Source of the DNA: Parvularia atlantis
Lineage: Eukaryota
Length of the DNA: 39,457 bases
NCBI GenBank assembly: GCA_943704415.1
Contig: CALSCO010001754.1
Span: 1 to 39,457, forward strand
Direction of reading: 5' to 3'
The translations under genes were made by a program, and so were the position numbers. Positions within the stretch are counted from its first letter, which is position 1. The number at the start of each line of letters is the position of its first letter. This document shows, piece after piece, positions 9,301 to 12,300 of this stretch. The notes beneath the pieces are model-generated. The model was not told where the DNA came from, searched no databases, and saw only the letters and a program-made list of their open reading frames with translations.

Positions 9301-12300
9301 GGTCGCTGTGCGTCCCGACGATAAACACGACGACGCACGCGCGCTGCGCCGGCGGCAGGCACAGCAGTTGCGCCTGCAGCTGCTCGAGCGCGCGCTGCAG
9401 GAACACGTGCGCGGGGCTGCTGACGAGCGTCTTGTCGGTGTAGGGCACGGCCGGGCTGACGAGTGCCGTGTCCCACAGCAGGACGTAGCAGGTCGCAGGG
9501 GTGATCTGTAGCGGCAGGGCCAGCGGCGACGTGTCGTCGCCGGGCCCGTGCGGGCCGTGGTTGACGTCCCAGACCGAGAGCATGAGGCGCGAGTCGGGCG
9601 AGACGCGGTTGGGCACGCCGCGCAGGCGCGTCAGCGTCACGTCGCTCTTGCTTCCGTCCATCGCGAGCGACATCGCCAGGCTGATCTCGACCCCGCTGTA
9701 CTCCTTGCGCATCACGCTCGACGCCTCGGCCGACGCCGCCACACGCGCCGCCGCCGTCGTGTCCGAGTCGCAGCTGTCGCGCAGCAGGGCCGAGGCGGCC
9801 TGCACTGCGAAGCGGATCGCCGTCCACCACTGTGCGCGCTCGACCTCGTTCGCGCAGCTGGCGTGTGTCGCGCGCGCACACGCGCGCGTGAGCCACGTCG
9901 GCATGCCGCACACCGCATGCCGCGCACCGGAACGCGTAGACGCGATTGTCGGGCAGCGTGCGGATGCTCCACTCGACGTCGTTCTCGAGCGAGAGCGTGA
10001 CGACGGCCTCGGCTAGGTCGATCGTCCCGGCCTCCTCCACGGGCATGCCGGCCTTGCTCGGCGGCTTGTAGTAGACAAAGAGCGTGCCGCGGAGCTCGCA
10101 CAGGCGGTCCTGCCACACGTCGAGCAGCTTGCTGAGCACGTTGGGGCTGCGCTTGAGCAGGTGTTCGGGTGGGAGGCACAGCGCGTGCATCACGGTCGTC
10201 TTGCCGACGCCGCGCGGCCCGAGCAGCACGACGCGGCAACGGTGCAAGCGCTCGGGCTTGGCCTGGTGCACCGCGCGCATGTACGCGAGCAGGCGCGCGC
10301 TGCCGGCGCAGCGGTACTCGAGCGGGAGGGCCGCGAGCGGGCAGTCGAGCACGTTGAGGTGGACAAGGTTACGCATGAACGCGAGCGCTGTGCTGGGTGT
10401 GAGCCGGGACGCGGCAGGGCAGTGCGGGCTCGCGCGCACCGACGGGCAGCTTGTTGAGCGGGTTGCGGCTGATGTCGAGCGTGCTCAGCTGGTGGTACTG
10501 CAGGATCACGAGCGGCAGGCTCGAGAAGACGCACTCGCTCGCGCATAACCGGCGCAGCTGCACGAGCCGGTTGAGCTCGTTCGGCATGTCCTCGAGGTAG
10601 TTGCCGCTGACGTCGAGCGAGCGCAGGGTTGTGCACTGCGCCAGGAAGAGCAGGTCCTTGGCCTGCAGCCCGCAGTGCGCCACCGACAGGTGCTGCAGCG
10701 CCCCAAAGTGCGCCATCAGCGCGGCCTCGCGCAGCGGCTGCGTGCGCAACGACGTGTTGCGGTCCAGCAGCAGCCCCTCGAGGCGCTCGCACGCGGCCGG
10801 CACCACGGCCAGCGCCGCCAGCGCCGCGCCCGTCAGCCGGTTGCCGCGAGCGTCTAGGAACGGCAGCGCGCCGGCCGCGAGCGTCGTTGCGGGCAGGTCG
10901 CTCAGAAGGCGCTCGGACAGGACGCAGGCTGCACACGGTCAGCTGCTGCACGGACACGGCACACGGGCGGACGGCGCACCGGACAGCAGCGCGGCCAGGG
11001 CGTCGCGCGCCTCGGAGGCGGCGCCGAGCGTGTCGAGGAAGGGCGTGCTGGCGCGATTGACAGTGGCCGAGCGTGCGCCGTACTTGAGTAGCGTGAGCAC
11101 GACGTCGAGCCCGTCCCTGGTCGGCGGGCAGAGCAGCGGCGTGTTGCCGTCGCGGTCGAGCGCCTCAAGGCTCGCGCCGTACTCGATCAGCACCTGCGCG
11201 ACGCTGGCCTCGTTGTGGCAGCGCGCGTGGTGCAGTGGCGTGCGCCCGTCTGCCGCGGCTGGATCAGCCGACAGGATGCACATCGCCAAACGCACGCTTG
11301 TCCCGCGCCGCGACATCAGCACCGCGCAGCAGCAGCATGACGACGACGGCCGTTTGGCCGCGCGCGCACGCGTGGTGCAGCGACGTGCACAGATCTGTGC
11401 GCGCGCAGGGCATCCGTCAGCGCGGGTCGCCCGAGGCGGATCGTGGCGTGCCTTGGTCGCGCGCATCGACGACCGCGCCGTGCTCGAGCAGCAGCTTGGC
11501 GGCCGAGAGCATGCCGTGCCCGCTCACGTGGTGCAGCGGCGCGACGCCGCCCCCGAGCTCGGCCGTGTTGATGTTCGCACCCGCGCCCACGAGCAGCGCG
11601 ATGGTCTCGGTCAGACGCTCGACCACGTTGATCGTGAGCGGCCGCGCGCCGGCCGGGTCGCAGGCGTACAGCAGCGGCGTGAGGTGCTCGTGGCAGCGCG
11701 CGTTGACCGTGGCGCCGGCACGCAGCAGCAGCTCGACGCAGGCGACCTGGCCCGACCCGCTGGCATAGTGCAGGGCCGTGCGCAGTTCTGCCACCGCGGT
11801 GATGAGTGCGGGGCGACACGCAGGGGGAGGGAGCGCAACTGTGATCGACCAGGTCGACGTGCGCGCGCCGCGCCAGCAGCAACTCGACGGCGGCCGCGTG
11901 GCCCTGAAAGCTTGCGACATGCAGCGCGGCCTTGTCGGCTGGCAGGTGCGCGAGCGTCAACGGCACACAGCGATGTCGTAGTGCATGGCGCGTACTCGCG
12001 TCGGCCGCGTCGACGTTGGCGCCGGCGTCGATGAGCGCGGCCGCGGCCGCGGTATGGCCGAGAGCGCAGGCGACGTGCAGCGGCGTGCGGCGGTCTGCGC
12101 GGCGCACTGAGCCGGACACGACAACAAGCCGTGCAGCCGCGCACCGCTGTTGCGCGCGTCGACGTTGGCCTTGCCCATCGCGACGAGCGCGCGCACGACG
12201 GCCGCGTCGTTGCGGTTGCACGCCCAGTGCAGCGGCGTCGCGAGATCGGCGGTCTCAGCGGCGACGTCGGCGCCGCGCGCGAGCAGCAGCTCGACGGCCT

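Follow-up and report, generated by a model that had tools for sequence, protein, structure and literature searches.

The Roc GTPase domain of Roco-A, a Roco protein encoded by Parvularia atlantis, is interrupted by an insert that, as modeled, is a complete PH domain lying between α1 and β2, in the switch I loop. The gene occupies the minus strand of a contig (CALSCO010001754.1) that was analyzed over its whole length of 39,457 nucleotides, referred to below as the window; its DNA is GC-rich (about 70–71%) and its introns are short, with GT..AG ends. Roco-A is an ankyrin-LRR-Roc-COR-type protein. The nested layout of PH within Roc, its occurrence in two paralogues and in two species, and the state of the GTPase motifs are established directly, and we regard the layout itself as near certain; the remaining uncertainty lies in function. 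PH-in-Roc apparently represents an undescribed, conserved domain arrangement in a known protein family, the Rocos. The parts of Roco-A are as follows.

6358–12950, minus strand: Roco-A gene, with ankyrin repeats, LRRs, PH-split Roc, COR-like region, and C-terminal domain; based on translations, spliced RNA contigs (X1 records 1 and 4), and an orthologue along its length in L001/L002; many short introns, start codon position approximate
11030–12780, minus strand: ankyrin repeat region in several exons, limits approximate; Pfam Ank E 1.7e-14 on exon 11456–11788, with more TPLH motifs
10330–10923, minus strand: LRRs running into the α0 linker; Pfam LRR_4 E 8.6e-9
10197–10220, minus strand: Roc G1 P-loop GPRGVGKT, intact
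9803–10166, minus strand: inserted PH domain, with β1–β7 in one exon and the C-terminal helix in the next
9858–9927, minus strand: intron inside the PH domain, 70 nt, phase 2, falling between FR and C, with ends GTGCGC..CGCCAG
9104–9720, minus strand: second half of Roc, with β2 (VMRKEYS), a degenerate G3 DVNH (9568–9557), G4 GTHSD (9316–9302), and α5; aligned to canonical Rocs, and the orthologue model overlays LRRK2 Roc with Z 15.5
7300–9103, minus strand: divergent COR-like region, approximately delimited, that contains a long insertion of low complexity; 269 residues align to the orthologue at 36% identity
6358–7250, minus strand: C-terminal domain of no recognized family, not a kinase; 235 residues align to the orthologue at 47% identity, and an RNA contig is spliced here

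In a PDB sequence search, the best match to the Roco-A-type stretch from the end of the LRRs to the P-loop is LRRK1 (E 7e-5), and a local Roc profile gives Roco-A 60 bits, chiefly from this same part, and the paralogue Roco-B 67 bits; Pfam Roc reaches only E 0.22 on Roco-A. An intron within the LRR region (10439–10388) is spliced out in RNA contig X1 record 4. The COR-like region has no Pfam match and scores weakly on a local COR profile (2.9 bits), yet above 300 of 300 shuffles. The kinase motifs HRD and DFG are absent from Roco-A, and its C-terminal exons have no Pfam match. The C-terminal domain, for which neither the window nor the orthologue (L002, 8122–9093) has a Pfam match at E ≤ 0.001, is possibly a candidate effector. 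At the 3′ end of the gene, RNA contig X1 record 1 (window 6179–6482) passes the Roco-A stop into the end of a convergent LRR_9 (U2A′-like) gene, which suggests that the two genes have overlapping 3′ ends.

A preliminary description of this DNA had read a PH-like pattern directly after the P-loop, and the motifs that it quoted are indeed encoded, in that order, on the minus strand. The P-loop (10220–10197) is followed by LLKRS (from 10160) and then by WQDR, YYK, GTIDL, and RVYAF, the last extending to 9930; beyond the intron at 9927–9858, the exon with the PH helix reads CANEVERAQWWTAIRFAV (9856–9803), and SVWD, which ends at 9566, and GTHSD lie 3′ of the insert. Once the 70-nt intron is removed, the insert amounts to ~96 residues that begin 12 residues past GKT and end before β2, G3, and G4. 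RNA contigs of run X1 skip other Roco-A introns, and one of these contigs joins the LRRs, the P-loop, and the PH domain as far as 9974. The PH intron itself is bridged by none of the RNA contigs listed, and it is retained in a 153-nt contig from run X2. We infer the splice between FR and C from the GT..AG ends of the intron, from an intron at the matching site in the Roco-B genes of the two species, and from the intron-less Roco-A orthologue.

The fold of the insert was assessed in the window and in the orthologue. The PH exon of the window, truncated by its intron, matches Pfam PH weakly (E 0.021 and E 0.0046, both below the cut-off), and the uninterrupted insert of the orthologue scores 30.4 bits vs a cut-off of 25.1 (E 5.9e-7). 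PDB sequence matches of the window's insert are PH domains in four of four cases. An AlphaFold2 model was computed for 496 residues of the orthologue from a 20-row alignment that included Roc rows and contained no canonical PH row (mean pLDDT 70.6, pTM 0.63). It places, in order, Roc β1-α1, seven strands (72–173), a helix (177–199), and then the remainder of Roc. Residues 70–201 of the model overlay the ASAP1 PH domain with Z 14.8 and an rmsd of 1.9 Å over 99 residues (VIA-align), and residues 37–496, which enclose them, overlay the Roc domain and the beginning of COR in LRRK2 with Z 15.5 and an rmsd of 3.4 Å over 222 residues, the Roc part being aided by the Roc rows in the alignment. PH domains are the top Foldseek matches listed for the model (TM up to 0.78 by target), and the seven-stranded β-sandwich and capping C-terminal helix of a PH domain are both found in it. 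This fold evidence concerns the orthologue model, to which the insert of the window is tied by 59% identity. Both the PH fold and its location between G1/α1 and switch I/β2, ahead of G3 and G4, were put forward in the preliminary description, and both are borne out by these comparisons.

Roco-A is accompanied in the window by a paralogue. A six-frame motif scan turned up another P-loop, at 22185 and plus-stranded, which revealed Roco-B, a gene that the preliminary description had overlooked.

19562–25976, plus strand: Roco-B, arranged like Roco-A as ANK-LRR-Roc[PH]-COR; gene limits deduced from the translation, orthologue in L003–L005
22185–22208, plus strand: P-loop GHRGTGKT
22242–22612, plus strand: inserted PH domain, interrupted between FR and C, as in Roco-A, by an intron of 65 nt (22493–22557)
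22799–23032, plus strand: from G3 DVGG (22799–22810), an intact DxxG, to G4 GTHAD (23018–23032)

The P-loop/PH exons of Roco-B and Roco-A share 41% identity, and the Roco-B insert is 40% identical to the Roco-A insert and 51% identical to the insert of its own orthologue. The truncated PH exon of Roco-B has no Pfam PH match. For COR, the window's Roco-B protein has neither a Pfam match nor a score on the local profile, and the Roco-B orthologue reaches 25.5 bits on that profile. Within the β1-β2 loop of the Roco-B PH domain (22280–22317), a 17-nt direct repeat with a period of 21 doubles the motif MDTWN; the duplication is missing in the orthologue. Two genes occupy the interval between Roco-A and Roco-B (13112–18500), a TPR gene without introns, which lies head-to-head with Roco-A, and one for a P-type cation ATPase that is Ca-pump-like by its motifs, and a long (GA)n microsatellite (~19030–19105) separates the divergent ATPase and Roco-B genes. 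Farther out (700–5540 and 27000–39330), the Pfam-annotated neighbors are a protein kinase, an Atg3/10-type protein, LRR_9, eIF2A, DUF1295, CoA-transferase III, GST, HhH-GPD, and an mRNA cap methyltransferase.

A profile built from the P-loop/PH exons of Roco-A and Roco-B was run on 1.84 billion cluster representatives with a threshold of E ≤ 0.001. It returned 20 matches, two of which span the whole P-loop and insert, namely, P0003, the Roco-A orthologue, and P0004, the Roco-B orthologue; P0017 is a plain multi-PH protein, and the remainder align mainly at the LRR end and P-loop. A scan of metagenomes yielded five loci out of 131 candidate stretches, two carrying the A orthologue and three the B orthologue, and these apparently come from a single species of ~57% GC. 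The gene order Roco-B, P-type ATPase, TPR gene, Roco-A is common to the window and this second species. There, the Roco-A insert is free of introns, so that P-loop, PH, G3, and G4 fall in one open reading frame, and the Roco-B intron is kept. Between the species, the insert of Roco-A is 59% identical vs 49–53% for the flanking parts of Roc (49% for the second half of Roc), and that of Roco-B is 51% identical vs 44–51% (44% for the second half).

Other searches added little. Two short patterns, whose reach is close relatives only, found relatives in none of 20 candidate stretches from viral contigs and in none of 26 from prokaryotic genomes. Word-based protein searches gave no match with the queries P0001 or A2 and only P0003 with A5, blanks that carry little meaning because a known 56% relative was missed twice. 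The Atlas gave no match for the P-loop/PH piece and, for P0003, only leads below 0.9. A PH profile derived from P0017 ranks all four A/B inserts above 500 of 500 shuffles but not the insert of P0016, a more distant protein described below (36 of 500 shuffles as high), a result of little weight since P0017 was itself found using the insert.

P0016 is a distant LRR-Roc-COR match (Pfam Roc 4.6e-8, COR-A E 1.2e-5) whose top Foldseek matches are LRRK1/2; it is related to the A/B group with an HH probability of 99.5 and scores 28.1 bits on the local COR profile. Its Roc domain also contains an insert, of 85 residues (about 255–340), which has the same starting position as those of A/B, here 10 residues past the P-loop. 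Because this insert runs straight into TVTVGIE (G2) and then WDLGG (G3), the insertion can be placed between α1 and G2. The P0016 insert is likely a PH domain. It scores 7.6 bits on the A/B profile, a marginal value equaled by one of 500 shuffles, and its model is strand-rich, at low confidence (pLDDT about 30–55). It has no Pfam match and lacks the set of pocket residues (Lys, Arg, and Tyr) discussed below, and, given these absences together with the low-confidence model and the marginal profile score, it may derive from another insertion event. In silico removal of the PH domain shifts the Roc profile score by −7 to +2 bits in the four A/B proteins and by +7 bits in P0016; for A/B the exercise is uninformative, as the score is not raised in these four proteins. 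A further protein, P0013, also an LRR-Roc-COR protein, carries a DEP domain (residues 296–356, Pfam E 1e-10) between its P-loop and G3.

We then considered whether the Roc domains that host these inserts have intact switch motifs. G1 (GxxxxGK[ST]) is intact in all five family members examined, that is, Roco-A, Roco-B, both orthologues, and P0016; in the Roco-A orthologue it reads GAQGAGKS. The region LSVWD, which the preliminary description had designated G3, does lie at the G3 position, but the intact DxxG is not there, the sequence being DVNH in the window and DVNR in the orthologue. DxxG is present as DVGG in Roco-B, DVRG in its orthologue, and DLGG in P0016. A G2 threonine (TxG) is recognizable in P0016 only and not in Roco-A or Roco-B of either species, with the register of this loop uncertain. 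The motif YSGVEI was considered as a G2 remnant in Roco-A and rejected, as the model puts it at the junction of β2 and the following helix. G4 is THSD in both Roco-A proteins and THAD in the window's Roco-B, and the orthologue of Roco-B has THAI, in which the Asp is lost. In the accessible text of PMC6337361, conservation within Rocos is said to peak in the DxxG region, and switch I to vary greatly in length and composition, and degenerate Rocs are reported from Entamoeba in that of PMC2927912. Since the G3 Gly is missing and no G2 Thr is recognizable in either species, the Roc domain of Roco-A is likely a pseudo-GTPase, predicted to bind nucleotide and to switch poorly. Roco-B, in which DxxG is kept, appears to be a better candidate than Roco-A for residual GTP cycling, and P0016, with G1, G2, and G3 intact, would be the best candidate for an active member.

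The PH insert retains part of a putative phosphate-binding pocket. In the PH domain of CERT, K32, R43, Y54, and R66 bind phosphate, and the R66A substitution cuts affinity 13-fold (PMC3832616, accessible text). R43 and Y54 align to Arg and Tyr in the Roco-A insert, the position of R66 is occupied by Ala, and the β1 Lys matches K32 by position only; three of the four CERT-type positions are kept. Lys (β1), Arg (β2), and Tyr (β3) are present in four of four A/B inserts, which are otherwise 40–59% identical. Conservation of the insert on a par with its flanks, together with the retention of three of four phosphate-binding positions, makes the predicted docking to membranes likely.

The explanation that we favor starts from a single PH insertion, which would have occurred in a tolerant switch I loop before the duplication that gave rise to Roco-A and Roco-B. 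The kept Lys, Arg, and Tyr of the PH domain would bind lipid. Roco-A would retain nucleotide binding through its intact G1 and G4 THxD motifs and, having neither the G3 Gly nor a recognizable G2 Thr, would have lost sensing of the γ-phosphate. The PH domain would then serve mainly as a targeting module that keeps the ANK/LRR scaffold at the membrane. Taken as a whole, this proposal, in which a PH domain inserted into the switch I loop ahead of the A/B duplication now recruits the protein to membranes containing phosphoinositides and Roco-A has become a scaffold without a normal GTPase cycle, is probably correct, although we hold it with only modest confidence. The position of the insert can be explained without allostery, because switch I is the most variable loop of Rocos (PMC6337361, accessible text) and also houses the DEP domain in the unrelated Roco P0013.

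The PH domain might instead be a lid or allosteric sensor, in which lipid binding pulls on switch I and thereby controls exchange, hydrolysis, or dimerization, much as in Gα, whose helical domain is inserted between α1 and switch I. Both termini of the PH domain connect to α1 and to the switch I/β2 region, Gα chains overlay the G domain of the model with Z 14.3, and the P0016 insert stops ~4 residues short of the intact G2 Thr. In CtRoco, moreover, a switch 1 mutation alters dimer stability and GTPase rate (PMC11052575, accessible text). Against this, a flexible linker of ~25 residues (pLDDT under 50 in the orthologue model) separates the PH helix from β2 in Roco-A, the Roco-B orthologue is without the G4 Asp, and switch I is, in the accessible text of PMC6337361 and PMC11052575, mostly disordered and variable in Rocos. 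The preliminary description had suggested that lipid binding could be coupled directly to nucleotide state, and for Roco-A this coupling is doubtful because the G3 Gly and G2 Thr are missing in both species; Roco-B and P0016, with DxxG kept, remain as candidates on the basis of their motifs and suit an allosteric role better than Roco-A does. Overall, we consider a lid or sensor rather improbable. By analogy, one could go further and envisage an LRRK-like family in which the PH domain stands in for most of switch I and functions as a Gα-like lid, phosphoinositide sets the nucleotide or dimer state, and the linked Roco-B and Roco-A form a pair of active GTPase and pseudo-GTPase that switches only on the membrane, a scheme to which we would attach little credence.

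It is likewise doubtful that the PH domain is a protein-binding module (e.g., for a small GTPase or Gβγ) that replaces the effector role of switch I, with lipids incidental. Ras-like GTPases contact their effectors through switch I, many PH domains recognize proteins or have weak affinity for lipids, the R66-equivalent is gone from the Roco-A insert, and the P0016 insert lacks the basic pocket altogether. The persistence of the phosphate-pocket Lys, Arg, and Tyr in all four of the divergent A/B inserts argues the other way, but it is not decisive because the same positions are often kept in PH domains as structural elements. Least credible by far is that the layout is a gene-prediction artifact or a functionless insertion in decay: the PH intron is unbridged by RNA contigs and read through in one small contig, and the GTPase motifs of Roco-A are degenerate, but the layout recurs in both paralogues of two species (GC about 71% vs 57%), with kept gene order, open frames, and spliced transcripts, the flanks are no better conserved than the insert, and the intron-less orthologue by itself largely refutes this reading.

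LRRK2, the Parkinson's protein, is controlled by membrane recruitment, through Rab proteins, and with a natural Roco that carries a lipid-type domain in its switch I loop one could test directly whether membrane binding can be wired to the state of Roc. Switch I emerges as a site that accepts entire folded domains (PH in Roco-A and Roco-B, DEP in P0013), and more such proteins are probably unannotated, since the domain splits hide them from Pfam Roc and COR. The Roco-A/Roco-B pair and P0016 together provide a natural series that runs from intact to degenerate switch motifs.

The preliminary description did not recognize a PH domain inside Roc as a described architecture, and we likewise found none described in full-text searches of papers other than the classic Roco surveys, which covered running text rather than figures and supplements. 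Other Roc domains are known to contain inserts. Roco10 of Dictyostelium carries an RGS domain in the region of its Roc. In P0013, a folded domain of membrane type stands between G1 and G3, as in Roco-A, but this domain is DEP and not PH. The Ectocarpus protein Esi0281_0023 also has a foreign insert in Roc, but there it is an 850-residue repeat array located between β5 and α4 (PMC3341825, accessible text), and the Roc insertions of brown algal long ROCs are described as non-conserved (PMC11378527, accessible text).

The PH domain itself resembles those of the CERT/FAPP1/OSBP type and of ASAP1 and ARAP3 in fold (Z 13–15), and WQDR and YYK are common to CERT and Roco-A; it differs from them in lacking the R66-equivalent, in its longer β1-β2 loop, and in being embedded in a G domain. 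The likeness to Gα is one of position, a Ras-like domain with a folded insert whose G domain can be overlaid (Z 14.3), but the insert of Roco-A is a PH domain rather than a helical bundle and is not known to cover the nucleotide. Like MFHAS1-type and bacterial kinase-less Rocos (LRR-Roc-COR), Roco-A is without a kinase, and the top Atlas look-alikes of its orthologue are MFHAS1-like and Roc clusters (0.85–0.88, leads only); in contrast to Roco-A and Roco-B, however, the Roc domains of these proteins are uninterrupted in the aligned rows, and Roco-A and Roco-B add ankyrin repeats and an unassigned C-terminal domain. LRRK1 and LRRK2 differ from Roco-A, which has a PH domain inside Roc, no detected kinase or WD40, degenerate G2 and G3 motifs, and a strongly diverged COR, but they share with it the order ANK-LRR-α0-Roc-COR, and the Roc domains of LRRK2 and LRRK1 give its best structural overlays (Z 15.4–15.5).
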